64,000 nt of DNA from an uncultured Candidatus Saccharibacteria bacterium (GCA_964565685.1 CAZMFR010000001.1:36376-100375); one strand, 5' to 3'. Numbered from the stretch's first letter, positions 3,763 to 64,000 are shown. Notes: generated by a model not told the origin, from the sequence alone. Numbers and translations: made by a program.

Positions 3763-3830
3763 GCAACAATCGTATCATATTTCTGCTTTATAGAGAAACA
3801 GGCGGTTTTTGTCCGAGATCCGATCTTGGA

Positions 3831-4057: not shown

Positions 4058-6832
4058 TTATTTCCTATACTTCTCCGCAATCTGCGCCTCGATCTCTGCG
4101 CGATCCTTGCCATAAGTCAGATATGACAGCTCTTTCAGCTTGCCCGCGACATCCGCATCGCCTTTGGGGATATTCGGAACGGCGATGTTGAACGGTTTGA
4201 CGGGAACGCCTTTGGCCAAAAGTTTGACGTAACAGTTGTAATTGTCGATATTCAAAATGTCTTTTTGGGTAAAAGCCGGTTCGAATTGTTTTGCCAGAAA
4301 TTCGGCATCCTCGACTCCGACACGATAGACTGCCATAGAGCCGACATTGCCGAAGACGGCGTTCTTGATCTTTTCATCGAGCTGTTTGATGAATTGATGG
4401 GCGATGTTTAGCGACAGCTTGTATTTGCGCGCTTCGGACAGGATAGTGGCAATAGAATCAGTGGTTATATTCTGGAATTCGTCGATATACAGATAAAATG
4501 GCGGCAGGTTTTTGCCGAGCGAGTCGACGCGCGACAGAGCCGACATCAGGATCTTGCCGACAATGATCAGACCTATAAGATTGGCGTTTATGTCGCCGAG
4601 CCGGCCTTTTGATAGATTGACAAGCAAAATCTTCTTGTTATCCATTATGTCGCGAATATTGAATGTAGATTTTTCCTGTGCGATTACAGGACGCATGATG
4701 TCGTTGGCCAAGAAATTATCGAACTTTGACACGATATATGGAACGATATTAGCCAGAGATGCTTCGCCTCCGGCTTTGTCGGCTACTTCGCGCCAGAATT
4801 GGATTACGAGAGGGTTTTTACAAGTTGCCAGCTTGGACTCGCGGAATTGCTTGTTCGAGAGCACGCGCGAGACGTCGACCAGGGTGTTGTTCGATGACGG
4901 GTCGTCTATGGTAAGGAGGACCGCGTTGCGGAAATATTGTTCGAACATCGGGCCGCCGGCAGTTTTCATGTCGAAGAGCTTGTTAAAGATAGAGAGCATC
5001 TCATTGACCACAAATGTTTTCTGCTCCGGATAGCGCGTATCATATTCGAGCATGTTCAGAGCCATCGGTCGCGCCGTGTACGCCGGGTCGAAATAAATGA
5101 CGTCTTCAAAACGATCTTGTGGGACCAGGGCAAGTATATCTTCGACGTCAGAGCCATGCGGATCGATGAAGCAAAGGCCGTTCCCTTTTTGCATATCCTG
5201 AACGATCATATCCTTTAGCAAAGTCGTCTTGCCTGTGCCTGTCTGTCCGATGACATAAAAATGGCGCAGACGGTCATCGTCAGTCGTATAAACTTTTGTC
5301 TCTCGTCCGCGATCCGTATTGGTGCCGAGAAATGTCCCCATCTGCGGCAAATCCATAGGCGCAGGAGCCGTACCGGATTTCGTCAGCTTGACCTGAGAGG
5401 TCGAAACCTTGCCCGCTACCGGCAAATGCATGACTGTCGTGAGCTCACGCAAAGAAAGCGGGCAATCGCAGCTGTCATCGAATCTGCGATAGGTGAAGTC
5501 GTCTAGTTCTTTTTCCAACTTGCCTCTCGTCACACGAACGAATTCAAAGCAGTTCCCTTGGATATTTTCGAATTGGTTAAAGGAGGCCTCCAGATCAGAC
5601 AGAATGGCATTAGCTTTTGCTTCGCTTTCTGCAGAAGCGATGATACGGATATTTGTCGAGAGCACCGGCGACAAGAGCTTGTTTTGAATCTCCTTCATGC
5701 CGAGCTCGTCTTCAGGCCGATGGCCTTTCTGCGCCTTCTTCTCTTCTTTTTTCTTTTCCTTTTCCTCTTTGCTCGTCGTGACGCTTTCAAGCGCGCTTAC
5801 AAACCCAGAAGCAAAACCCTTTAGCGCTTTGTGTCCAAGAGAATACGCGATATCGATCGCCTCTGACAATTTTTCGCCCTTTTGGATCTTCTCTAATGCC
5901 TTCTTGTATTTTCCGGTATAGAAATCACCGACAGGACTAAAGACGATCTGGATCGACGCGCCTTCGCCATCGCGGTCTATCTTTGAAAAGCTGTTCAGAA
6001 GAGAATTGATCGGATCATGGTCGAACTGCTCGTATGTCTTTATCGGGAAGATATGATTCTTTTTTTGTTTGGCGCGAGACGCTACGGAGGCGCCGTTCTC
6101 ATTGAAGATATTGTAGTCGTTCTTGCATTCGTTCACTTTTGCATCTGGCAATATTGAAAGGATCTGCTTTTCAAATAGATTGCGTTTTTCATCCGGCACT
6201 GCGGCATAGAAAACAAAGTCGTCGCTGTGATTCGCTACTGCTATCTCGAAGACAAATCTGTTTTTACCGTCATCGCCTCCAGCACACATGCCTGCATAGA
6301 ATTGCTCCATCGACGAGAGGATCTCCTTCAACGGCTTTTGGGGATTGTCTTTCTTTTCATTTTCCGGCACCAGTATCTCGAATAGAGACATGTTCAGTTC
6401 CCTCCAAAGCGGGCTCTTCTCCTTTAATCCGCCGATGACAAAACCGGATTTCAGATATTGCACGAGCAGACGATGAAAGTCGGCAGAGATGTGCGGATTG
6501 TCCATTTTATCCACGATTGAAAGGGTGGCGTGTATGCCTTTTGTCTCGAGCATGCCGAGAAGCTCGTTCATCTTTGCATCATGCTGTTCCGGCGCGAGAT
6601 CTAGGACGATGGCCTCCATTTCCTGAGTAGGCACTATATATTTTTCCGCTAGCACTTCGCCCGGCTTTTTCTCGGCATATTTCAACACCTCCTCGCGCGC
6701 AACATGCTCGACAGACGCATCTGGAGTCCTTTCGAGGATCTCTTTCTCCTTTTTCGCGATCATCTCGCGCAGATACGATATCTCCTCTTGCGGATTCTGG
6801 AATTTTTCTGGCTGACCAATTAGATTCTCCAT
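4058..6832 (-). CDS. VirD4/TraG/TrwB-like (type IV secretion coupling-protein-like) P-loop ATPase with a large N-terminal domain
   Basis: C-terminal half carries Walker A (VIGQTGTGKTTLL), a DPHG motif (CFIDPHGSD), Walker B (LYIDEFQNI) and an HQ motif (NIAHQF). This set is characteristic of TraG/TraD/VirD4-type ATPases. HerA/FtsK-like is an alternative. The roughly 450-aa N-terminal domain has no TM segment. A K/E-rich low-complexity linker (EEKEKKKEEKKAQK) separates the two halves. Confidence 0.6.
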   Translation of the reverse strand: MENLIGQPEKFQNPQEEISYLREMIAKKEKEILERTPDASVEHVAREEVLKYAEKKPGEVLAEKYIVPTQEMEAIVLDLAPEQHDAKMNELLGMLETKGIHATLSIVDKMDNPHISADFHRLLVQYLKSGFVIGGLKEKSPLWRELNMSLFEILVPENEKKDNPQKPLKEILSSMEQFYAGMCAGGDDGKNRFVFEIAVANHSDDFVFYAAVPDEKRNLFEKQILSILPDAKVNECKNDYNIFNENGASVASRAKQKKNHIFPIKTYEQFDHDPINSLLNSFSKIDRDGEGASIQIVFSPVGDFYTGKYKKALEKIQKGEKLSEAIDIAYSLGHKALKGFASGFVSALESVTTSKEEKEKKKEEKKAQKGHRPEDELGMKEIQNKLLSPVLSTNIRIIASAESEAKANAILSDLEASFNQFENIQGNCFEFVRVTRGKLEKELDDFTYRRFDDSCDCPLSLRELTTVMHLPVAGKVSTSQVKLTKSGTAPAPMDLPQMGTFLGTNTDRGRETKVYTTDDDRLRHFYVIGQTGTGKTTLLKDMIVQDMQKGNGLCFIDPHGSDVEDILALVPQDRFEDVIYFDPAYTARPMALNMLEYDTRYPEQKTFVVNEMLSIFNKLFDMKTAGGPMFEQYFRNAVLLTIDDPSSNNTLVDVSRVLSNKQFRESKLATCKNPLVIQFWREVADKAGGEASLANIVPYIVSKFDNFLANDIMRPVIAQEKSTFNIRDIMDNKKILLVNLSKGRLGDINANLIGLIIVGKILMSALSRVDSLGKNLPPFYLYIDEFQNITTDSIATILSEARKYKLSLNIAHQFIKQLDEKIKNAVFGNVGSMAVYRVGVEDAEFLAKQFEPAFTQKDILNIDNYNCYVKLLAKGVPVKPFNIAVPNIPKGDADVAGKLKELSYLTYGKDRAEIEAQIAEKYRK

Positions 6833-14971: not shown

Positions 14972-15402
14972 TAAAAATATTGACACAAAAATCGCTCTAA
15001 AAGGTCGCCTCACCGGCAGCTTTCTTTTTTACTCATTTTGGGAATATAACCAATAGGTTATAAATGAAAAGTGCATAAAAACGTTGCCCCGCACCTCTTG
15101 GAGATCTTTTAAAAAAGACTATGGCAAGGTTCCGTCTTCGCTCGTTCGTCTGTCCGCAAGCGGTCACGCCGCTCCTCAATAAGCATATTAGCCCGAGACA
15201 TGAACCTGCTGGTTCACCTACTGGGTCGCTAGCCGGAATAAACCATAAGTAACGCTCCACAGTGGAGAGATTCTTGCACTTGTGATATTGGATTAAAAAT
15301 TAATCCAATAATTAGGCCCGCTCTTTAATATCCCTCGACCGTCTATTCATCACTTCAAAAAGTCGACAAGAAAGTTGTCAACTTTTACCGATACCAAAAA
15401 AG

Positions 15403-17435: not shown

Positions 17436-18281
17436 TCAAAACTCCCCTATCTTCGTCCTCTCTATCGAAAGCGCGAACGTCGCCGTGCCTGCTTCCCTGC
17501 CGATCCGCTCTGCCAAGCTGCGCATATAGGTGCCGCTTCCACACGACACGCGAAGCTTGATGACGAGAAAATTCTCTGCACCGTGCTCGCTTTCAAACTT
17601 CTTCCAACCTTCGATTATTTCCTTTTGACGAAAATCACCATTCACTTTTGAGACATTCTCGATCGCCCGTTCGGCAAGATCATTGCCACCGATAAAGTCA
17701 AGCTGTTTTTTAGCGCGATTTCTTCCTTTATCCATTCCTTTTCTTGCCAATTCTTCTATTGAATAAATCTCTACCTCTTTCGTCGGCATCTCGTCAGGCA
17801 ATTCACCGCTTCTAGCAAGGTCATGCAAATGACGCTTTTTACCGAGATGGAATCTTTCCGATATTTTATCTTGTACTTGTCCAAGATCAGATCTTGGACA
17901 GACAGTTTTCGACGAATACGCAGGATAGACCTGCGTGAACTTGCCGCAGAATTTTGTCCAAGGGTAGCCCTTGGATACAAGCCCTTCGGAATAGGTCATG
18001 GCATGGGTCTGCCGATCCACCTGTGTTATAAGCCCCAGCGCGTCGCCCGTATCCGTCCCGACGCCAAATAGCACCTCGATCTCGTATTCCTTGTCCAAAC
18101 CGAGATATTTTTCCTTTTCCTTACATTCTTCACCGATGAGCAATAAAAGCTTGCCGCTCGCCAACGGATCGAGCCGCCCGGCGTATGTCATCGGCACATT
18201 TACATCGATCCATTTTTCGCGCCGCGTCCTTTCAAGGCATTCAAGCGGCGTCTCGCCTACTGATTTATTAACCACAAGCAT
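17436..18281 (-). CDS. truB: tRNA pseudouridine(55) synthase TruB-like, carrying two in-frame palindromic-element insertions
   Basis: Catalytic-Asp region (YAGRLDPLASGKLLL) and the TDTGD segment are present. A FTQVYPAYSSK segment resembles the conserved PP.YSA.K element. Two 24-bp palindromes at 17878-17901 and 17955-17978 encode the inserted peptides CPRSDLGQ and KGYPWTK. Confidence 0.6.
   Translation of the reverse strand: MLVVNKSVGETPLECLERTRREKWIDVNVPMTYAGRLDPLASGKLLLLIGEECKEKEKYLGLDKEYEIEVLFGVGTDTGDALGLITQVDRQTHAMTYSEGLVSKGYPWTKFCGKFTQVYPAYSSKTVCPRSDLGQVQDKISERFHLGKKRHLHDLARSGELPDEMPTKEVEIYSIEELARKGMDKGRNRAKKQLDFIGGNDLAERAIENVSKVNGDFRQKEIIEGWKKFESEHGAENFLVIKLRVSCGSGTYMRSLAERIGREAGTATFALSIERTKIGEF
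17878..17901. repeat. palindromic hairpin element, copy inside truB: TGTCCAAGATCAGATCTTGGACAG
   Basis: Perfect inverted repeat GTCCAAGAT-CAG-ATCTTGGAC, in frame within the truB CDS. Confidence 0.8.
17955..17978. repeat. palindromic hairpin element, copy inside truB: TGTCCAAGGGTAGCCCTTGGATAC
   Basis: Inverted repeat CCAAGGG-TAG-CCCTTGG, in frame within the truB CDS. Confidence 0.8.
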
Positions 18282-23384: not shown

Positions 23385-24200
23385 ATGGAACCAAACCAAG
23401 ATCCTCGCCCACAGCAAATCCTCACCGTCCCCATGGCCATCGTTTTGGCCGCAGTCATTATCGGCGGAGTCCTCCTGTATATGTACCGTCCAGCGGCCAC
23501 CACACAACAGGCAGTGAATAGCCAAGCCGCTCCTTCGGTCACCGTCCCAGATACCAGTGCTCTCCCACCAGTCACCGCCGCCGACCATATCCTCGGAAAC
23601 CCGAACGCGCCGATAAAGATCGTCGAATACTCGGATCCTTCTTGTCCGTATTGCAAAATGTTTCAGGCAACCATGCTCCAGATCATGCAGAATTATGGCG
23701 CCTCCGGAAAGGTGGCTTGGGTCTATCGACAATTCCCTCTCAACAAACCGGACCAGAACGGCAATATTTTGCATCCGAATGCCGGCATACAGGCAAATGC
23801 TTTTGAATGCGCAGCATCTGTCGGCGGCAATGCAGGTTTCTGGGCTTATGAAAAAGACTGGTACAGCACTTTTCCACAGGACGGCGCTGACGAAACCTCT
23901 ATCGTAGATAACCAGCAGATAATACAGACAGCAAAAGACATCAAGCTCGACACGAATGCGTTCAATAATTGCGTTCTCGGCGACAAGTTCGCCTCTACGA
24001 TCAACCAAATGTACGCATCCGGTCTCTCTCTCGGCATCGACGGCACGCCAACTTCATATATTGTGACCTCAACCGGCCAGCCGATCGCCATTCAGGGCGC
24101 ACAATCCTACGCGACACTCTCGGCCGCTATCGATGCGATTTTGGCGGATCAAGGGCAAGGGGGAACAGCTTCGACAGCTTCGACAACTTCGACACAGTAA
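23385..24200 (+). CDS. DsbA-like thiol:disulfide oxidoreductase (membrane-anchored thioredoxin fold)
   Basis: N-terminal TM helix. CPYC active site in SDPSCPYCKMFQ. The C-terminal T/S/A-rich tail is encoded by a 9-bp tandem repeat. Confidence 0.7.
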   Translation: MEPNQDPRPQQILTVPMAIVLAAVIIGGVLLYMYRPAATTQQAVNSQAAPSVTVPDTSALPPVTAADHILGNPNAPIKIVEYSDPSCPYCKMFQATMLQIMQNYGASGKVAWVYRQFPLNKPDQNGNILHPNAGIQANAFECAASVGGNAGFWAYEKDWYSTFPQDGADETSIVDNQQIIQTAKDIKLDTNAFNNCVLGDKFASTINQMYASGLSLGIDGTPTSYIVTSTGQPIAIQGAQSYATLSAAIDAILADQGQGGTASTASTTSTQ

Positions 24201-24203
24201 TTC

Positions 24204-24225
24204 GTACAAGGGCTTCCCTTGAACT
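24204..24225. repeat. palindromic hairpin element (degenerate copy): GTACAAGGGCTTCCCTTGAAC
   Basis: Inverted repeat CAAGGG-CTT-CCCTTG. Intergenic, between the convergent dsbA-like and helicase genes. Confidence 0.7.
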
Positions 24226-24230
24226 ATGTT

Positions 24231-24252
24231 TGTACAAGGTAGCACCTTGTAC
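24231..24252. repeat. palindromic hairpin element: TGTACAAGGTAGCACCTTGTAC
   Basis: Perfect 10-bp arms with a 3-nt centre, followed by TTTTTTA at 24266-24271. Intergenic. Confidence 0.85.
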
Positions 24253-24271: not shown

Positions 24272-27200
24272 TTAGTCGAAGCTTACTTTGGCCAATCCGC
24301 ACCATTCGCAATCTGGATCATCGCATCTGCTTGACACAAGCCCACCGGACCAGACGCTGTCGATGACGCTTTGGATCTGCTCTTTTACTTTTTCTATATC
24401 CTCATGAGCTATCGGCAAGGAAACGATCGGACAGCGGCCTTTTTTATCCGGCGAGATGAAGACGAGCGCAGGCGTGATCTTTTTACCCCTCCAGCGCGGC
24501 TCGTCGTCTAGCAATATGCGATAGAACACGAGCTGACGAAAATAATCGCCGGTTGAATTTTTCGTCTCCCCTTTTATCTCGTTCACCGACATACCCTCGC
24601 GCGTTTTATAGTCAAAAACCTGGATCTCGTTTCCTGCATCGATGATCGCATCTAGCTTGCCGTGGAGCGGAATCTCGACTAGATCGAGGGATACCATCGT
24701 TGTCCGAGGGCTTCCATTTTGTCCAAGGGTAGCCCTTGGAGTTGTATCAAAAACCGTCTTGACCCATCTTTCGGTAAATATGGCCGCCTGCCGGCCGACA
24801 GCAAAATGCGACTCGAGGGCTTTTGCAACAGCCGGCGCGTCCTCGAACAGGTCTTTCTTGACCGATTCTTTTTCCTCCGCGGCAAGAAAAGACGTATCCA
24901 GATATTCCGCCGCTTTTTCCAAGATGACATCTTGGATATGCGATGCGGTCCGATCGCCTTCTTTCCAAATCGAAGAAATCGCATAATGCATGGCCGTGCC
25001 CTTTTCAGCCGCCGGCGAAGGCGCTTGCGGCAGTTTTAGAATGCTCAAATAAAGGAATTTATTCGGACATTCGAGAAAATGGTTCAAGGCCGTGACAGAA
25101 AGGCCGTTTTCAAGGAGAACCTGTTTGGCGATGGCAGTCATCTTGTTCGAGATCGGATCTCGAACTTTGATTTGTCCAAGGTCCGATCTTGGCAATTCCG
25201 CTTCAAACCTCGGCAAAGACGCCGCCGCGACGCTTTTTGGATCGAGCTCGGCGATAAATCGAAGCGGCGTCAGAGATTTGCCGTCGCTTTCCTCTAGAGC
25301 GGTCAGAATGACCGCATGCTTCTTGGCACGAGTCAGGGCGACGTAGAATAATCGCCGCGTATCGCGAATATCGTTGCCGCTCGCGCTCTTTTCTGGCAAA
25401 ACAAAAGATGCGCCTCGTGTCCGGCCGATCCACGCTTCTTCGGTGGCGTACGGCATGAAAACATAGTCGAATTCTAGCCCTTTAGAACCATGAGCCGTCA
25501 TAGCCGAGATCGACAAGTCTGGCGCACCGACGGATACCTTCACTGTCTTTGACTCGGCCGATTGGCGATACACGAGCATTGCCTTTATCAGGTCGAGCGG
25601 GCTCTGTATATTCCCTTCTCGCGCGAGCGATTCGGCAAGAGCAATGATGCCGCGCCACACATGAATAGCCGCCGGATCGCGACTGGCGATAGTAGAGAAT
25701 CCGGATGACTCGGCGGCGTGTATTAGAAAGGCGACAGCGCTGTCTTCTTGCATCTTTCTTTGCAAGCGGACGAGTGACGGAATTTTGTTTATCCAAGGGC
25801 TACCCTTGGACTGATTTTCCAAGGGTAGCCCTTGGAACTGACCGCTTCTCAAAGACTTTATCAGGGGAATCGCTTCGTCGATCGAGATTCCCCACATTCC
25901 AGCCGCAATCGTCTTTGCAAGGCAATCCGTCCGCGTGTAGTCAGCCAGAAACTCCATCAGATCAAAAAATAGCGCCCCGACGGAATGATGGAATATATCG
26001 ACACTTCTCTCCGATGAAACCGGTATATGATTCGATTCGAGGAGCCGGATGATGCGCTCTAGATCGCGATTGCGGCGAGTGATGACGGCGACAGTGGCTG
26101 TTGGCTCCTCTTTTAAGATCGTTTCGAGCCCAACAACTAGATATCTTTCGATAGCCGAGACGTTCTCACCAGTGACTACATCGAGCTTGCGCAGTCCTTC
26201 TCCATCTTTCCTTTTTTCTTCCTGTCTGTCGGCAGGCATGGCTTTGCTTCTCTGCTTGCCTTTATCGCCCGCTGTAAGTCTAACCCTCAAATCCTTGTGC
26301 TCGTCGCCTTCATAATTGTTCTCTATCATGGCAAAGCTGGCATCTAGAATGCCTTGATGCGATCGATAATTCGTATCGAGCGATATGACCTGCATGGTCG
26401 GCCAACGCTTTTGCAAGGTCAAGAAATTTTCGACAGAAGCGCCCTGGAACCGATAGATCGCCTGTTTTTCATCTCCAACAATGAATATGTTCGGTGTTTC
26501 AAAGAATTCAGCGATAGTGGCGACGATGAAATTCTGGGCATCGTTCGTGTCCTGATGCTCGTCCACGAGAAGATATAGAAATCTCTCCTGGATAAGCCGT
26601 AAAAACAGCTCATCGTTGCGCAAGGCGACGAGAAGCTCGATGAGAAGATCATTGAAATCCATCTTCTTCTGCTCGCGCTTGTCCTTTTCATATTTTTCAT
26701 AAATTTGGGAAAAGAGGACGGTGCGGCCGCACTTCTCTATGCGTTCTTGCGCTTCTGCTTTCAGCTTGCCCTTCGTAATGCCGCGCGTCGAGATAGAATC
26801 ATCGTCTTTTTTGATCCTTTCGGTCTCTTTTTCAGCGAATTTGCGCACCATTTCCGGAGTTTGCGCTTCCCTCTTTGCATTATCTATAGCGCGCATAATA
26901 GCAGATATGTATGCATCCGGCTTGCCAGTCGGACGAAGCTCTCTAAATTCCGGCTTGGAGATTATCGAGCGGATCAGAGACTCCTGTTCGACATCGCTCA
27001 TATGCGCCATGCCATCGAGATGCAGGAAGTGATCTGGATACTCGGCGATCATCGCCGCGGCAAAGCTATGAAAAGTATGGATCGCGATCTCGTGCGCGCG
27101 ATTGCCGATTATTTCGCGAAGCTTTGCGCGCATGGCCTTGACACCAGCATCGGTGTACGTAATAGCCAAGATCCCAGACGGTGGCGTATCCGTCCTCTTC

Positions 27201-27349
27201 AAGATATTAGCGATACGCAAAGTCAATATTGTGGTCTTGCCAGTGCCAGGACCGGCTATGACCATTACGGGACCGTCGATGGCGTCGACGGCTTTTTTTT
27301 GCGCCGGATTTAGCGATTTGTATTTCTGGTCAAAAGTTTGCGTATTCAT
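24272..27349 (-). CDS. UvrD/PcrA-type superfamily-1 DNA helicase fused to a C-terminal PD-(D/E)xK (Cas4/AddB-like, Cys-cluster) nuclease domain
   Basis: N-terminus LNPAQKKAVDAIDGPVMVIAGPGTGKTT (Walker A). Helicase motifs run through roughly residue 700. The C-terminus has a QVFDYKT (D-x-K) nuclease motif and a CDDPDCEWCGLAK cysteine cluster. The gene contains at least 5 in-frame copies of the palindromic element. Confidence 0.75.
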   Translation of the reverse strand: MNTQTFDQKYKSLNPAQKKAVDAIDGPVMVIAGPGTGKTTILTLRIANILKRTDTPPSGILAITYTDAGVKAMRAKLREIIGNRAHEIAIHTFHSFAAAMIAEYPDHFLHLDGMAHMSDVEQESLIRSIISKPEFRELRPTGKPDAYISAIMRAIDNAKREAQTPEMVRKFAEKETERIKKDDDSISTRGITKGKLKAEAQERIEKCGRTVLFSQIYEKYEKDKREQKKMDFNDLLIELLVALRNDELFLRLIQERFLYLLVDEHQDTNDAQNFIVATIAEFFETPNIFIVGDEKQAIYRFQGASVENFLTLQKRWPTMQVISLDTNYRSHQGILDASFAMIENNYEGDEHKDLRVRLTAGDKGKQRSKAMPADRQEEKRKDGEGLRKLDVVTGENVSAIERYLVVGLETILKEEPTATVAVITRRNRDLERIIRLLESNHIPVSSERSVDIFHHSVGALFFDLMEFLADYTRTDCLAKTIAAGMWGISIDEAIPLIKSLRSGQFQGLPLENQSKGSPWINKIPSLVRLQRKMQEDSAVAFLIHAAESSGFSTIASRDPAAIHVWRGIIALAESLAREGNIQSPLDLIKAMLVYRQSAESKTVKVSVGAPDLSISAMTAHGSKGLEFDYVFMPYATEEAWIGRTRGASFVLPEKSASGNDIRDTRRLFYVALTRAKKHAVILTALEESDGKSLTPLRFIAELDPKSVAAASLPRFEAELPRSDLGQIKVRDPISNKMTAIAKQVLLENGLSVTALNHFLECPNKFLYLSILKLPQAPSPAAEKGTAMHYAISSIWKEGDRTASHIQDVILEKAAEYLDTSFLAAEEKESVKKDLFEDAPAVAKALESHFAVGRQAAIFTERWVKTVFDTTPRATLGQNGSPRTTMVSLDLVEIPLHGKLDAIIDAGNEIQVFDYKTREGMSVNEIKGETKNSTGDYFRQLVFYRILLDDEPRWRGKKITPALVFISPDKKGRCPIVSLPIAHEDIEKVKEQIQSVIDSVWSGGLVSSRCDDPDCEWCGLAKVSFD
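24720..24741. repeat. palindromic hairpin element inside the helicase CDS: TGTCCAAGGGTAGCCCTTGGAG
   Basis: Encodes TPRATLGQ in frame. An adjacent degenerate copy, GTCCGAGGGCTTCCATT, lies at 24702-24718. Confidence 0.8.
25173..25195. repeat. palindromic element variant inside the helicase CDS: TGTCCAAGGTCCGATCTTGGCAA
   Basis: CCAAG...CTTGG arms. The neighbouring perfect palindrome CGAGATCGGATCTCG lies at 25148-25162. Confidence 0.7.
25791..25839. repeat. two tandem palindromic elements in opposite centre orientation inside the helicase CDS
   Basis: ATCCAAGGGCTACCCTTGGACT, then 4 nt, then TTCCAAGGGTAGCCCTTGGAACT. Translated in frame as FQGLPLENQSKGSPW. Confidence 0.85.
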
Positions 27350-33955: not shown

Positions 33956-35272
33956 TTATAATATGACCCCTCCTCCCAAACAAACTTCCCCGTCATACAC
34001 AACGAGTGACTGACCCGGCGTCAAAGCGTTCTGTGGTTTGTCGAATTTTATCTCGGCTGTTCCGGAGTCTTCTTTAATTGAAGTAAAAACAAGCGGCACG
34101 AGCGGCTGGCGATAACGAGTACGACCGGATTCCAGAGGTCCGACCTCTGGAATTTTAATCCAATTCGTCCTTTCGAGCATAACCATAGTTTTCGCCTCCG
34201 CCAAAAGTCCTTGTGGATCTTTGTTTGAAACAGTGATCGTGTTCTTCTCGACATCCTTTGCAACAATGAAATACGGCTCGTCATGCGGCGTCTTCTTATC
34301 TATGACAAAACCGTGACGCTCGCCGATAGTCAGGAAAAAAGCGCCGTCGTGATGACCGATAGCTTTTCCTGCTTCATCGAGGACATCCCCATTTTTCGGC
34401 TCCATATAATGAGAGAGGAATTCTTTTATGTCGACTTTGCCGATGAAACAGAGGCCTTGGCTGTCTTTTTTGTCTGCATTCGGCAAATTGAATCTCTGTG
34501 CGAGCTTGCGCACGTCTGGCTTCTCTATGTCACCGATCGGAAAGAGGATGTGCGGCAGTTGTTCTCGGCGGATGTTCCAGAGGAAGTATGATTGGTCTTT
34601 GTTCGGATCAGTGCCAGCAAGCAAGCAATAATCGGTCTCAGCACCAGATACATTCTTTCTCCGGACTATTCCCGGGTTTCCCAAGCCAAGTTCTCGCCCT
34701 GAACGCTCGCCCGGGAGCCATCCAAAAGAGGTATTTGGCGCTTCGCCTTGATTTTCGACTCGGCATTCTTGACTTTCGACTCGGCGCTTTCGACTTTCGA
34801 CTATCCTTGCATAATGCCCCGTCGCCACGAAATCAGCGCCCTGCCCCATCGCGAAATCATAGAATGCGCCAAATTTGACGCTCTTGTTGCACATAACATC
34901 CGGATTCGGCGTCCGACCAGCTCGATATTCGGCGATCATATAGTCGACGACATCGCGCTTGTATTCTTTTTCCAGATCCAAAGTCATAAAAGGAATGTCC
35001 AAAACTGCCGCTACACGCATGGCATCGAGACGATCCTGTCGCCAGTTGCAATCCATCCAATCCGGCTGCCAGACTTTTATAAAGACGCCAATGACATCGT
35101 AACCGTCACGCTTTAAAAGCGCAGCAGAAACAGAGCTATCTACGCCGCCCGACATGCCGACAAATACCCGTTTGTTTCGACTTCTATTGTTTTTTTTGTC
35201 TTGTATGGCATTTATAGACCTGTGTGGCTTTGACACTATAGGAGATAATGCCGAATTATATTGACCTTTCAT
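33956..35272 (-). CDS. mnmA: tRNA-specific 2-thiouridylase MnmA with an in-frame low-complexity insertion of roughly 55 aa
   Basis: PP-loop GMSGGVDSSV. TGHYAR and NKDQSYFLW motifs are present. Between them the gene carries a tandem TTTCGAC(TCGGC) repeat (34741-34800), not found in typical MnmA. Confidence 0.75.
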   Translation of the reverse strand: MKGQYNSALSPIVSKPHRSINAIQDKKNNRSRNKRVFVGMSGGVDSSVSAALLKRDGYDVIGVFIKVWQPDWMDCNWRQDRLDAMRVAAVLDIPFMTLDLEKEYKRDVVDYMIAEYRAGRTPNPDVMCNKSVKFGAFYDFAMGQGADFVATGHYARIVESRKRRVESQECRVENQGEAPNTSFGWLPGERSGRELGLGNPGIVRRKNVSGAETDYCLLAGTDPNKDQSYFLWNIRREQLPHILFPIGDIEKPDVRKLAQRFNLPNADKKDSQGLCFIGKVDIKEFLSHYMEPKNGDVLDEAGKAIGHHDGAFFLTIGERHGFVIDKKTPHDEPYFIVAKDVEKNTITVSNKDPQGLLAEAKTMVMLERTNWIKIPEVGPLESGRTRYRQPLVPLVFTSIKEDSGTAEIKFDKPQNALTPGQSLVVYDGEVCLGGGVIL

Positions 35273-35557: not shown

Positions 35558-35580
35558 TTGTACAAGGATAGCCCTTGTAC
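35558..35580. repeat. palindromic hairpin element: TTGTACAAGGATAGCCCTTGTAC
   Basis: Directly abuts and overlaps the mltG stop codon. At a convergent junction. Confidence 0.75.
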
Positions 35581-36521
35581 TACAGATACTTTGTCTCATT
35601 GGTCATCTGCTCGTCATATGTCTCGGCAAAATGTATGTTCCCTTTTGAATCAGACAAATAATACCAATATGTCGTGCTAGCCGGCGAGATTGAGTCCTCT
35701 ATCGCTGAAAGCCCGGGGTTACCGATAGGCGTCGGAGGCAAGCCGAGATTTTTATATGTATTGAATGGCGAAGTGGTCGCCAAGTCGTCAGAAGTCAATT
35801 TTGTACCGTCTTTATCCAGAGCAAAAGCTAGGGCGGCATCCACTTGGAGAGGCATCTTGTCGTCTAGACGCTTCCATAGAATGCCAGCGATGATACGGCG
35901 GTCATTAGAAGAGGTCGCTTCGCGCTCGAGAATCGAGGCCATGATGACGATGGACGATGTGGCACGGCCAGATTCCGAGATCTGATCTTGGACAGAAGAA
36001 ATCTTTTGATCAAAGAGCGTGCGCATAGCTTTCACCGCATCGTCTGGCGAAGTATCCATATTAAAGAAATACGTGTCCGGAAACAGATATCCTTCTGACG
36101 GATCTGCCAAAGTCATAAAAGTCGAAGTGGAAAAACCAGGAATATCTTTGCCGAGCAACGCTGAAATCTGCTGTACATCAAAACCCTCTGGGATGGTCAC
36201 TTTGATCGGGGTAAATCCATATTCTCCATTGACGAGCCGCCGTGCGACCTGTACGACTGATTCCTTCGAATCAAAAAGATAATCCCCTGCCTTGACCCCT
36301 CTCTCGCCTGAAAAAATTATCACAAAAGACTTGAATAGAGCTTCTGATCTTATCATATGATCATTATAGAGATTATCCGTGACTGCGGCGAGCGAAGAGT
36401 TCTGCTCGATGTGAAAAATCGTTCCGACAGGAAAAGTTAAAGAAGGAAACGCGGCAAAACCAAACATGGCAAGTAAAACGACTATGAAAAAAACACCGAT
36501 AGCCGACAGAAACTTTTTCAT
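35580..36521 (-). CDS. mltG: endolytic murein transglycosylase MltG (YceG family)
   Basis: N-terminal TM helix. Motifs IPEG, ASILEREA and GLPPTPIGNPG, plus a YWYYL C-terminal region. Confidence 0.75.
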   Translation of the reverse strand: MKKFLSAIGVFFIVVLLAMFGFAAFPSLTFPVGTIFHIEQNSSLAAVTDNLYNDHMIRSEALFKSFVIIFSGERGVKAGDYLFDSKESVVQVARRLVNGEYGFTPIKVTIPEGFDVQQISALLGKDIPGFSTSTFMTLADPSEGYLFPDTYFFNMDTSPDDAVKAMRTLFDQKISSVQDQISESGRATSSIVIMASILEREATSSNDRRIIAGILWKRLDDKMPLQVDAALAFALDKDGTKLTSDDLATTSPFNTYKNLGLPPTPIGNPGLSAIEDSISPASTTYWYYLSDSKGNIHFAETYDEQMTNETKYL

Positions 36522-38005
36522 ACTGGTATATTCGCTGGCGCTTCGCCTTTCTTTGACGGCACGCGAGTCAATGTCGGCGTAGCCGCGACCTGACCCGGGA
36601 AGTGATAGATGGTAGCGAGCGACTCAGAGCTCATTATCATGGGCTTCAGATGACCGATAATATGCGTATATGGCGGAAAGAAGTACGAACGGCGCTTGTA
36701 CATGTCGAGGGCTTGTTTTGAAAAATGCTCGGCCATTTTGCCGCTCCTGTCTTCCCATGGCAAGTCTATCCTCTCGAACCACAGGTCATCGCTCGTGCCG
36801 AGCCCGTTCATGTGCGGAGCGCTGTATTGTTTCCACATGCTCTGCATGGCGCCTGGATTCGCCTTGTTGAAATTCTCTTTTTTGGCGATGTACATAAGGC
36901 GGATGCCCACATCAAAGCCGAGCTTCGTAATATTGCGCTCGATGGCTGTGATGATATCTTCCTCGCCTTTCGTTATCCTAGGCATCTTTGAAAAACCAGT
37001 GTCAGCATCGGCCGCACCGGCAACATGTGTCTTTGGATCGCGCCTGTGCAATTTGTTCACCAACGCTTCGGCCTCTTTTTGTCTCTTGTCGTGCTTTTTA
37101 AAGAAGTGACCTGGCTCGACATGATCGCTCTTTTTATATGCACGGACTAATATCTGCACCCATGCTTGCTGATTGACCCCGATCGATCCCAAAAATTCAA
37201 TGACCGGCGCGATCGGATCGACCTTGAATTCTTCCTTTGGATCCTTGTCTAGACCGTAATCCACATAAGTCATGAGCGGGTATGCGTCTTCTTTGCTGAA
37301 TTGAAGGTCAGCGGCCCAGATCTCCATTGTCTTTGGATCGTAATGGACAGATTGGGCGTAATCTGTCGCATCATGGACTTCTATGCCCGGGAATTGGGCA
37401 TACAGCGATGTCGAGATAAAATTCTTCAGAGATTTTCTCATCCAAATGAAGAAATGTATCTGCCCTTCTATCGAGACGAGCTCGAGAGAAAACCAAGCTC
37501 TGGTCTTTCCGTACCAATATTTGCCGAACCAGCCGCCTTCGCCCGCAGTCTGATGGAGCGCGGTCAGGAACATCTCCATGGCCACTGGGGACTTCACCGT
37601 CTCTTTTGGCAATCTGACTTCGACTATAGAATATTCTTGCTTTGAAAGCGTTTTGGCTCTCGTGTAATTAATCCAAAGATCGATGAAAATAAAGAAAAGA
37701 GCGATCATCACCGCCAAAGGAGACAGAGCGATCAAGATGTCAAAGAATACATTAAAATTTGATGAGCTTACAAATATATTGACGAATAACCAGAAACAAA
37801 AGACGACGATAAAACCGGAAATGCTCCAAAAAAGATATTCCTTGTGCTCTTTTAGCTTGTGGTTGACAAAAAAATAACGGTAGATATTAAAGAAAAAAAC
37901 AACGACAGAGACAGCGATCAAGATGTACATGATCACATGATATTGCGTTATAGATAGACCTATCTGGCTCATAGAATAAGTATAACAATTAAAGGCAAAA
38001 GGCAA
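36518..38005 (-). CDS. hypothetical membrane protein (4 N-terminal TM helices plus roughly 350-aa soluble domain)
   Basis: 495-aa ORF that overlaps mltG by 4 bp. No recognisable motif. Confidence 0.5.
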   Translation of the reverse strand: MPFAFNCYTYSMSQIGLSITQYHVIMYILIAVSVVVFFFNIYRYFFVNHKLKEHKEYLFWSISGFIVVFCFWLFVNIFVSSSNFNVFFDILIALSPLAVMIALFFIFIDLWINYTRAKTLSKQEYSIVEVRLPKETVKSPVAMEMFLTALHQTAGEGGWFGKYWYGKTRAWFSLELVSIEGQIHFFIWMRKSLKNFISTSLYAQFPGIEVHDATDYAQSVHYDPKTMEIWAADLQFSKEDAYPLMTYVDYGLDKDPKEEFKVDPIAPVIEFLGSIGVNQQAWVQILVRAYKKSDHVEPGHFFKKHDKRQKEAEALVNKLHRRDPKTHVAGAADADTGFSKMPRITKGEEDIITAIERNITKLGFDVGIRLMYIAKKENFNKANPGAMQSMWKQYSAPHMNGLGTSDDLWFERIDLPWEDRSGKMAEHFSKQALDMYKRRSYFFPPYTHIIGHLKPMIMSSESLATIYHFPGQVAATPTLTRVPSKKGEAPANIPV

Positions 38006-38017
38006 AAGGCAAAAAGT

Positions 38018-38042
38018 TTGTACAAGGGTAGCCCTATGTATA
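38018..38042. repeat. palindromic hairpin element (imperfect): TTGTACAAGGGTAGCCCTATGTATA
   Basis: Intergenic. Immediately preceded by an (AAAGGCA)x3 tandem repeat at 37991-38016. Confidence 0.7.
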
Positions 38043-44460: not shown

Positions 44461-44483
44461 TGTACGAGGTGGCACCTTGTACA
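44461..44483. repeat. palindromic hairpin element: TGTACGAGGTGGCACCTTGTACA
   Basis: Intergenic, just downstream of the groEL stop. Confidence 0.75.
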
Positions 44484-51830: not shown

Positions 51831-51855
51831 GGTACAAGGTAGCACCTTGTACAAA
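51831..51855. repeat. palindromic hairpin element: GGTACAAGGTAGCACCTTGTACAAA
   Basis: Intergenic, in a divergent promoter region. Confidence 0.8.
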
Positions 51856-51967
51856 ATCCTTGCTATAATAGACAGCACAAGAAACATGACAAGACCCACG
51901 CTTTCGCGTGAATAACGAACGATTATTAGGTTTTTCATTTCGATTTTTGCATTTTCAATCTACTATC

Positions 51968-58899: not shown

Positions 58900-58923
58900 A
58901 GTACAAGGGCTACCCTTGGACAA
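58900..58923. repeat. palindromic hairpin element: AGTACAAGGGCTACCCTTGGACAA
   Basis: Intergenic, upstream of nrnA. Confidence 0.8.
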
Positions 58924-59947: not shown

Positions 59948-59972
59948 CAGTCCAAGGGCTACCCTTGGACTA
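59948..59972. repeat. palindromic hairpin element: CAGTCCAAGGGCTACCCTTGGACTA
   Basis: Intergenic. Confidence 0.8.
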
Positions 59973-60938: not shown

Positions 60939-60963
60939 GTGTACAAGGTAGCACCTTGTACTT
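60939..60963. repeat. palindromic hairpin element: GTGTACAAGGTAGCACCTTGTACTT
   Basis: Intergenic, in a divergent promoter region. Confidence 0.8.
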
Positions 60964-63119: not shown

Positions 63120-64000
63120 ATGAATTATTATCCAAAACATTATTGTGGAATATTTGGCGTCAAAGACATGCCAAATGCGGCAGAATTGGCCTACTATGGA
63201 CTATACGCTTTGCAACATCGCGGCCAAGAAAGCGCCGGCATCGTCAGCACGAACGGGAAAAGCTTTTACGAACACAAGGGCATGGGGCTGGTGCCAAACA
63301 TCTTTACAGGATCGGTCTTGCAAGCTCTCGGCGGAAATACAGTAAAGATGGCTATTGGGCACAATCGATATTCTACTGCCGGCGGATCGGAGATAAAGAA
63401 CGCCCAACCGCTGTCGGTAGAATGCAAATTCGGACCTATCGCGCTCGCACATAACGGCAACCTGACTAACACCCGCCCCCTGCGCGCAGAGCTGGAGAGC
63501 CATGGAGCATTATTCCGGACGACTACGGACAGCGAGATAATGCTGATCCTCTTGGCGCAATCAGATGCATCTTCACTTGACCAAGCCATCCTCGATATGA
63601 TGGAAAGAGTCGAAGGTGCATATTCCCTCGTCATCATGACGAGGGACGCTCTCATCGCCGTGCGTGATCCGCATGGGTTTCGACCGTTATCGCTCGGCAC
63701 ATTGGATGGAAATCCAGTCGTAGCCAGCGAAACATGCGCATTCGACGTCATAAACGCGCGCTTTGAACGAGAGGTAAAACCGGGCGAGGTGGTCATATTC
63801 GAAGGAAACAAGACGCGTATGCTCACGGCGCAAAATCAGTCAGAGAAAAAACCGGAAAGATCCTTCTGTGCGTTCGAATACGTATACTTTGCCAGACCAG
63901 ATAGCATCATGGGAGGCAGAGACATCTACAGCGTGCGCTTCGCAATGGGAGAAAGACTTGCCAATGAATATCCAATCGATGCGGATATCATAGTGCCGAT
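63120..64000 (+). CDS. purF: amidophosphoribosyltransferase (glutamine PRPP amidotransferase), 3'-truncated by window end
   Basis: N-terminal nucleophile Cys, MNYYPKHYCGIFGV. RGQESAGI, GHNRYSTAG and AHNGNLTN motifs. The frame is open to the end of the window. Confidence 0.85.
   Translation, partial: MNYYPKHYCGIFGVKDMPNAAELAYYGLYALQHRGQESAGIVSTNGKSFYEHKGMGLVPNIFTGSVLQALGGNTVKMAIGHNRYSTAGGSEIKNAQPLSVECKFGPIALAHNGNLTNTRPLRAELESHGALFRTTTDSEIMLILLAQSDASSLDQAILDMMERVEGAYSLVIMTRDALIAVRDPHGFRPLSLGTLDGNPVVASETCAFDVINARFEREVKPGEVVIFEGNKTRMLTAQNQSEKKPERSFCAFEYVYFARPDSIMGGRDIYSVRFAMGERLANEYPIDADIIVP

Follow-up and report, generated by a model that had tools for sequence, protein, structure and literature searches.

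The helicase-nuclease gene and its palindromes

The stretch of DNA analyzed here (64,000 nucleotides of an uncultured Candidatus Saccharibacteria bacterium, GCA_964565685.1 CAZMFR010000001.1:36376-100375; hereafter the window) carries on its minus strand, at 24272..27349, a single open frame of 1025 amino acids (aa) with an ATG start that encodes a superfamily 1 (SF1; UvrD/PcrA-like) helicase joined to a C-terminal PD-(D/E)xK nuclease and that contains seven short palindromes of one repeat family at four sites. Its Pfam matches (UvrD-helicase PF00580 at 1.2e-59, UvrD_C PF13361, and PDDEXK_1 PF12705 at 1.3e-19) bear out the intact fusion protein proposed in an earlier reading of this locus from the sequence alone (the original prediction), and the nearest solved structures are UvrD, PcrA, and Rep, followed by RecB, AddA, and AdnB. 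With these SF1 helicases and the AddA/RecB-type enzymes the protein shares the helicase N- and C-terminal domains and the C-terminal PD-(D/E)xK nuclease, but it represents a single-chain form of ca. 970 to 1080 aa that is kept in Paceibacteria and carries lineage-specific loop insertions. Across an alignment of 28 orthologues (58-100% identity, 949-1077 aa), the GPGTGKT, DEHQD, HGKLD, and DYKT motifs and the C-terminal cysteines are invariant. The original prediction had named a pseudogene or an assembly error as what would undo its reading, and both can be rejected given the intact frame, the occurrence of the identical protein on at least ten contigs from several samples (the four displayed contigs come from four different samples), and the presence of similar inserts in orthologues. 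A metagenome scan with the helicase as query returned no 100% match.

Three of the four sites are doublets. At 25791..25837, ATCCAAGGGCTACCCTTGGAC (25791-25811), a 5-nt spacer, and TTCCAAGGGTAGCCCTTGGAA (25817-25837) form an inverted doublet resembling a REPIN (a hairpin-forming pair of repetitive extragenic palindromes [REPs]) that is translated as FQGLPLENQSKGSPWI at aa 505-520 (FQGLPLE/QSKGSPWI) and whose 19-nt arms are 100% complementary, giving one long hairpin of -23.3 kcal/mol (z = -8.4). The doublet in the helicase-nuclease linker at 25145..25193 combines GTTCGAGATCGGATCTCGAAC (25145-25165), which has a perfect 10-bp stem, with the decayed GTCCAAGGTCCGATCTTGGC (25174-25193) and is translated as LPRSDLGQIKVRDPISN at aa 719-735 (LPRSDLGQ at 719-726 and VRDPISN at 729-735). 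In a beta-hairpin loop of the nuclease domain, at 24702..24741, the truncated GTCCGAGGGCTTCC (24702-24715), a degenerate half palindrome, is followed by ATTTT and GTCCAAGGGTAGCCCTTGGAG (24721-24741), together translated as TPRATLGQNGSPRT at aa 870-883. The remaining site at 24918..24936 is a single perfect palindrome, TCCAAGATGACATCTTGGA, that encodes IQDVILE at aa 805-811. All palindromes listed in the original prediction are present, are translated in frame in the intact gene, and yield exactly the peptides it quoted, though the perfect copy at 24918-24936 had escaped it.

Mapping the sites onto an AlphaFold model of the protein (mean predicted local distance difference test score [pLDDT] of 69.8) and comparing them with orthologues sets the three doublets apart from the single palindrome. 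The doublets lie in coil with pLDDT <50 (aa 506-516, the linker at aa 717-730, and the loop at aa 873-888 between the strands 856-868 and 892-904) and coincide with indel-rich columns of the 28-orthologue alignment. The palindrome at 24918-24936, in contrast, forms part of a confidently modeled helix and shows no indel against any orthologue, so that the description of the copies as insertions fits three of the four sites but not this one. A K/R/E-rich low-complexity insertion at aa ~349-385 (26195-26305), also with pLDDT <50, differs in length in every orthologue and contains no palindrome.

Related palindromes occupy the same sites in orthologues, and the sites are found in filled and in empty states. 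All clade members with an identity of 76% or more have one or two REPs in the loop around aa ~505, whereas outgroups have none; the stem variant there is specific to each genome (TCCAAGG vs. GTACAAGG), with pairing kept through compensatory changes. Orthologous copies in the linker show varying degrees of decay in L001 (where GTACAAGGTCGGACCTTGTAC is perfect), L002, L003, and L053. According to codon alignments, the site at aa ~870 is empty in L002, L003, L070, and L052, whereas the window, L001, and L053 each have a different REP doublet there. Helicase orthologues of 68% identity or less lack this palindrome family in the gene and its flanks. One of them, L054 (68% identity), has a linker insertion at 5437-5487 with two unrelated in-frame palindromes, TGCGGACGC-GACCG-GCGTCCGCA and GCGATTTATC-AGCA-GATAAATCGC, and other lineages may fill the same linker loop with other hairpin repeats.

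A dispersed family of short palindromes

The repeat unit is ca. 21 nt long and follows the pattern GT[A/C]CAAG...CTTG[G/T]AC, with a stem of 8 to 11 bp, a loop of 1 to 3 nt, and frequent arrangement as inverted doublets. Around 20 copies lie in the 64-kb window, far more than expected by chance: CCAAGGGNNNCCCTTGG with up to three mismatches gives 11 matches (1.26 expected), T[AC]CAAG..CTTG[GT]A gives 13 (0.18 expected), and an objective scan for palindromes gives 24 hits (2.75 expected). Besides GTCCAAGGG-TAG/CTA-CCCTTGGAC and GTCCAAGATC-N-GATCTTGGAC, the variants in the window include GTACAAGGT-AGC-ACCTTGTAC, which is identical at the unrelated loci 24232, 51832, and 60941 (there as GTACAAGGTAGCACCTTGTAC), as well as copies with CGAG/CTCG stems such as the one at 25145. 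Because copies with the same CGAG stem flank a transposase gene in L044, we assign the palindrome at 25148 that the original prediction had considered separate to the same family. Two palindromes with 11-bp stems at 63624-63646 and 15286-15310 fall outside it (TCCCTCGTCATCATGACGAGGGA in a PurF-like gene, TATTGGATTAAAAATTAATCCAATA intergenic), while ca. 0.09 such stems would be expected per 64 kb.

One unit corresponds to seven codons, and five of its six reading frames are free of stops. Since the helicase copies are moreover read in all three codon phases, passive translation accounts for the encoded peptides better than selection on them. We rejected selection on a REP-encoded peptide also in view of the differences between the peptides in the helicase; the PRSDLG common to this protein and to truB rests on just two synonymous differences.

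When we scanned 185,579 species, represented by one genome each (GTDB), for GTMCAAGGGNNNCCCTTGKAC, we obtained 48 stretches (none from the window's own organism), of which ca. 38 come from metagenome-assembled genomes of Patescibacteria/Paceibacterota. The loop triplet of the palindromes is uniform within a genome and different between genomes.

A transposase gene adjoins the palindromes in related genomes

An open reading frame (ORF) of ca. 217 aa was found by tblastn next to the palindromes in 12 of these loci from other Patescibacteria genomes, and the positions of the palindromes were mapped in 11 of these. They follow a fixed layout: 10 of the 11 loci have a palindrome upstream of the ORF, in nine cases 44-66 nt away, nine have one at or just past its stop codon, and six have one in frame at codon ~54 (IQGxPLD). 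Genes with both the in-frame and a stop-overlapping copy are often seen (L023 2838-3554, L027, L012, L026, L051, and others). Between genes of this kind that are 87% identical, the loop triplet is flipped (CGA vs. TCG).

The ORF matches the Pfam Y1_Tnp family (1.8e-8) and has the invariant motifs H80-F-H82, of the HUH (histidine-hydrophobic residue-histidine) type, and Y140-I-H-x-N-P. PDB searches with its sequence, either singly or as a profile, yielded no significant match, while its predicted model, which is of moderate quality (pLDDT 73.6), has as its best match among transposases 4ER8, the REP-associated tyrosine transposase (RAYT) of E. coli bound to a REP hairpin (Foldseek probability 1.00, best target TM-score 0.52), followed by TnpA of IS608 and ISDra2. 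More than 7,600 homologues were detected at E < 1e-10 and are, where named, annotated as Parcubacteria/Patescibacteria transposase.

Because the palindrome flanks a Y1/RAYT-type gene in relatives, and because the product of this gene matches the fold of 4ER8, we read the repeats as being of the REP/RAYT type ("REPtron"). We consider it probable (roughly 0.78) that the palindromes are REP-type repeats of Patescibacteria/Paceibacteria that are linked to a RAYT in relatives and that survive in frame in permissive loops. The RAYT would recognize the single-stranded REP hairpin and spread or maintain the repeats, two of which can form one long hairpin when paired in inverted orientation. Copies landing in permissive surface loops would keep the frame and be translated because the unit is 21 nt long and open in five of six frames. 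The helicase-nuclease would accordingly be a gene that gathered and retained REP doublets in three or more loops that tolerate indels (one within a part of the protein that has no alignment to UvrD/PcrA, the linker between helicase and nuclease, and the beta-hairpin loop of the nuclease domain), with doublets turning over between close relatives.

Several observations weigh against this assignment. The repeats lack the unpaired terminal GTAG/CGTC tag by which the published REP super-families are defined, as their GTAC/GTCC ends are base-paired with GTAC/GGAC, and the GTAG in the loop of the variant found in this genome, GGGTAGCCC, is a coincidence. About 11 of the ca. 20 copies in the window are intragenic (seven in the helicase, two in truB, one each in yceG and mnmA), which is unusual for REPs. 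A simple insertion of 21 nt fails for the copies at helicase aa 805-811 and in mnmA and yceG, which bring no net change in length, and for the single REP at aa 513-520, which is just two codons longer than the outgroup sequence. Conservation of the flanks is weak, and the four helicase sites are in part a common inheritance with close relatives and hence do not represent four independent recent events. Finally, tblastn of the window revealed no RAYT gene, and extending the source contig by 10 kb at each end (84 kb in total) brought up none either and added just one more REP; for the source organism, an association with a RAYT is suggested by the related genomes. On the same contig, ca. 7 kb to the right of the window's end, an ORF (L135 18131-18910) matches Pfam REP_ORF2-G2P/RepSA, a rolling-circle HUH replication initiator, and may mark an integrated small replicon or single-stranded DNA (ssDNA) element near the window.

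Copies that leave the length of the host gene unchanged

The copies without net length change give some indication of how these elements might be altered once in place. The right arm of the helicase palindrome at 24918-24936 is conserved coding sequence, and its left arm differs from L002 by three substitutions, each of which restores pairing. In mnmA (33956-35272, minus strand), a palindrome with a 12-bp stem at 34129..34153 (ATTCCAGAGGTCCGACCTCTGGAAT), a symmetric variant of the ...AAGGTC(C/G)GACCTT... REP core, has a left arm that resembles the orthologue and a right arm that is its exact complement and displaces unrelated codons. The in-frame REP variant of yceG (35580-36521, minus strand) at 35974..35992, TCCGAGATCTGATCTTGGA, encodes VQDQISE in a segment whose length is unchanged from the L001 orthologue and is identical to a truB copy at 19 of 20 positions. 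One arm of these three copies looks ancestral and the other like its copied complement, which suggests replacement or template switching and not insertion, and the same-length copies, the compensatory stem changes, and the flip of the RAYT loop together hint that these elements undergo conversion or templated copying from arm to arm. Elsewhere in mnmA, at 34661-34765, a 35-aa insertion relative to the L001 orthologue (CRVENQGEAPNTSFGWLPGERSGRELGLGNPGIVR) is not obviously derived from a REP.

Taken further, the same observations, and the perfect pairing that orthologous REPs retain through compensatory changes, could mean that the palindromes generally arise where they stand, by template switching or arm-to-arm copying at quasi-palindromes or by conversion that refreshes decayed copies. 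We consider this unlikely, since such a process alone accounts neither for identical 21-mers at many unrelated loci nor for one stem sequence across many genomes and its fixed layout around the Y1 transposase gene, and since sites such as the one at aa ~870 show a clear gain in length over the empty orthologues. In-place copying is more plausible as a maintenance process added to the REP/RAYT system than as the origin of the family.

Tolerance or targeting in the helicase gene

The original prediction had described the helicase as a hotspot, and its enrichment is indeed significant: six of the 24 hits of the palindrome scan fall into this gene, which makes up 4.8% of the window (binomial P = 8e-4 per copy, and roughly 0.005 by our own binomial estimate when doublets are counted as single events). 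However, it is not unique in this respect. Apart from the single copies in yceG and mnmA, truB (ORF 17436-18281, minus strand) contains two in-frame REPs at 17879..17976, GTCCAAGATCAGATCTTGGAC (CPRSDLGQ, aa 128-135) and GTCCAAGGGTAGCCCTTGGAT (VSKGYPWT, aa 102-109), and with two copies in 846 bp reaches a density similar to that of the helicase. Regarding the cause of the clustering, the original prediction had offered a target-site preference or relaxed selection on linker regions, and the second of these, i.e., tolerance in the permissive loops of a large modular protein, is best supported. A sequence-specific target site finds little support, given that copy flanks are moderately T-rich and G-poor (52% of copies vs. 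28% expected) and that we found no sharply defined target motif or conserved target tetranucleotide in them.

The clustering could alternatively be targeted or functional, with preferential insertion or selection in genes for ssDNA-hairpin processing and tRNA modification that would modulate expression by way of hairpins in mRNA or DNA or alter repair proteins. HUH enzymes commonly act together with UvrD/PcrA/Rep-type helicases, and the enrichment in the helicase extends to close relatives, with L001 having three copies in the 3-kb helicase gene vs. two weak ones in 20 kb of flank. The intragenic hosts comprise the UvrD-like helicase, truB, mnmA (twice; MnmA is also among the hosts in other Patescibacteria genomes), and UvrC, which has an in-frame REP in three other Patescibacteria genomes (L008 5609, L046 5647, and L032 1534) at two sites, aa ~185 and ~264. 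This range mirrors the intragenic hosts in the catalogue of REPs from >80 species by Di Nocera, De Gregorio & Rocco (2013, BMC Genomics 14:522; PMC3733652), which include UvrABC, UvrD/Rep helicase, RecBCD, DNA polymerase I, DnaE2, and, in several species, tRNA pseudouridine synthase B. Its authors considered that loops and linkers may render intragenic REPs neutral, yet doubted that the bias is fortuitous (PMC3733652).

Nevertheless, we regard targeting as very unlikely. Hosts in other Patescibacteria genomes include unrelated proteins such as PurL, MurD, a glycosyltransferase, and a ComEA-like protein, to which yceG can be added from the window, and the sample is small and was gathered through a motif search. 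The inserts behave like neutral passengers in that they lie in disordered loops, are read in three phases (the two UvrC copies at aa ~185 are likewise in different phases), and decay in relatives, and long multidomain proteins simply have more permissive loops. Furthermore, no helicase gene was seen beside the RAYT loci, where only two unrelated matches came up. We find it unlikely, to the same degree as the in-place origin discussed above, that both of two departures from the REP/RAYT reading hold together, namely that REPs also overwrite ca. 20 nt of coding DNA at constant length, through hairpin-templated copying or REP-directed conversion, and that their fixation in ssDNA-processing and tRNA-modification genes (UvrD-like, UvrC, truB, and mnmA) reflects a mechanistic or selective REP/RAYT link instead of tolerance. 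Tolerance of copies that a RAYT would have mobilized remains our preferred account of why they accumulate in the helicase.

Intergenic copies in the window

Outside of genes, the copies of the window occupy one convergent, six unidirectional, and two divergent intergenic sites and mostly lie downstream of genes. The convergent site is a doublet at 24204..24252, composed of GTACAAGGGCTTCCCTTGAAC, tatgttt, and GTACAAGGTAGCACCTTGTAC, between the stop codons of a DsbA-like ORF (24200) and the helicase (24272); such placement between convergent genes is classical for REPs (PMC3733652). Short tandem repeats of CAGCTTCGA-like units are found at the 3' end of the DsbA-like ORF (24150-24195). Three further copies are GTACAAGGATAGCCCTTGTAC at 35560..35580, which abuts the yceG stop codon, the decayed GTACAAGGGTAGCCCTATGTA at 38020..38040 downstream of a release-factor gene, and GTACGAGGTGGCACCTTGTAC at 44462..44482 downstream of groEL. 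Directly upstream of the copy at 38020, AAAGGC is repeated three times in tandem (~37990-38012). The other intergenic REPs are TCCGAGATCCGATCTTGGA at 3812..3830, GTACAAGGGCTACCCTTGGAC at 58901..58921, GTCCAAGGGCTACCCTTGGAC at 59950..59970, and the copies of GTACAAGGTAGCACCTTGTAC at 60941..60961 and, in a divergent intergenic region, at 51832..51852. The last of these lies 7 nt upstream of a promoter-like (-10-like) box, TTGCTATAAT, ahead of a gene for a major facilitator superfamily transporter (51832-51870).

This position would suit an operator or other binding site of a dimeric DNA-binding protein, or an RNA regulatory hairpin, as would the perfect dyads with their conserved outer half-site TCCAAG/CTTGGA and the maintenance of stems by compensatory change. 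We nonetheless hold such a role of the palindromes to be extremely unlikely. Half of the copies lie within coding sequence and most intergenic ones at the 3' ends of genes, and they are arranged in inverted doublets and around a transposase gene. The uniformity of the loop within a genome and its difference between genomes point to common descent of the copies within each genome. An Rfam search of the window gave no match, and no tRNAs were found in it either.

Relation to known palindromic elements

With the REP/RAYT systems of other bacteria, the family described here shares stem-loop repeats of 20 to 40 nt in many dispersed copies, inverted dimers, and, as far as its intergenic copies are concerned, a location that is mainly downstream of genes or, in one case, between convergent genes. 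Further common features are an IS200-like HUH/Y1 transposase gene flanked by the repeat, here in related genomes, and in-frame copies in a UvrD-type helicase and truB, in the window, and in UvrC, in related genomes. It differs in its occurrence in Patescibacteria, in the absence of an unpaired GTAG/CGTC tag, in its perfect and very short stems with loops of 1 to 3 nt, and in that about half of the copies are intragenic; in addition, the RAYT genes of Patescibacteria usually carry a copy in their own frame (codon ~54) and one over the stop. We found no paper linking RAYT or REPINs with Patescibacteria (the candidate phyla radiation [CPR]) in the searchable literature, which does not prove that none exists.

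The Rickettsia palindromic elements (RPEs; Ogata et al. 2000, as cited in PMC3733652), the classic example of in-frame insertion, are likewise palindromic repeats that lie in frame in genes, with truB among their hosts in Rickettsia conorii (PMC3733652). Both groups thus comprise selfish palindromes in frame in functional genes that are translated as extra surface segments, and the ORFs affected in the window are intact. The two are nonetheless set apart by length, as the units of the window measure ca. 21 nt and its doublets 45 to 50 nt, and by the tie to a Y1 transposase in relatives. RPE-1 is roughly 100 to 150 bp long and is not known to have a dedicated transposase.

To TnpA of the IS200/IS605 insertion sequences IS608 and ISDra2, which recognizes single-stranded DNA hairpins, the RAYT of Patescibacteria is related by the Y1_Tnp domain, the HFH motif, the conserved tyrosine motif, and the predicted fold. 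Unlike in those elements, its gene is flanked by one and the same short palindrome instead of distinct left and right ends, and no TnpB was seen. It also carries a C-terminal extension of ca. 70 aa and shows no sharply conserved target tetranucleotide.

Implications for Patescibacteria and their genomes

A striking sequence feature of the helicase gene would thus be accounted for by a known class of selfish DNA, and REP/RAYT systems would extend to the ultra-small, genome-reduced Patescibacteria. The bias of intragenic REPs toward genes for DNA repair, pseudouridine synthase, and tRNA modification is reproduced independently in an unrelated phylum, having been seen in Patescibacteria as well as in Proteobacteria, Verrucomicrobia, and Rickettsia, and the thousands of available CPR genomes could be used to separate tolerance from targeting. 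In practical terms, REP inserts lengthen proteins and produce spurious ORFs on the antisense strand, and they mark those loops of the host proteins that are permissive.

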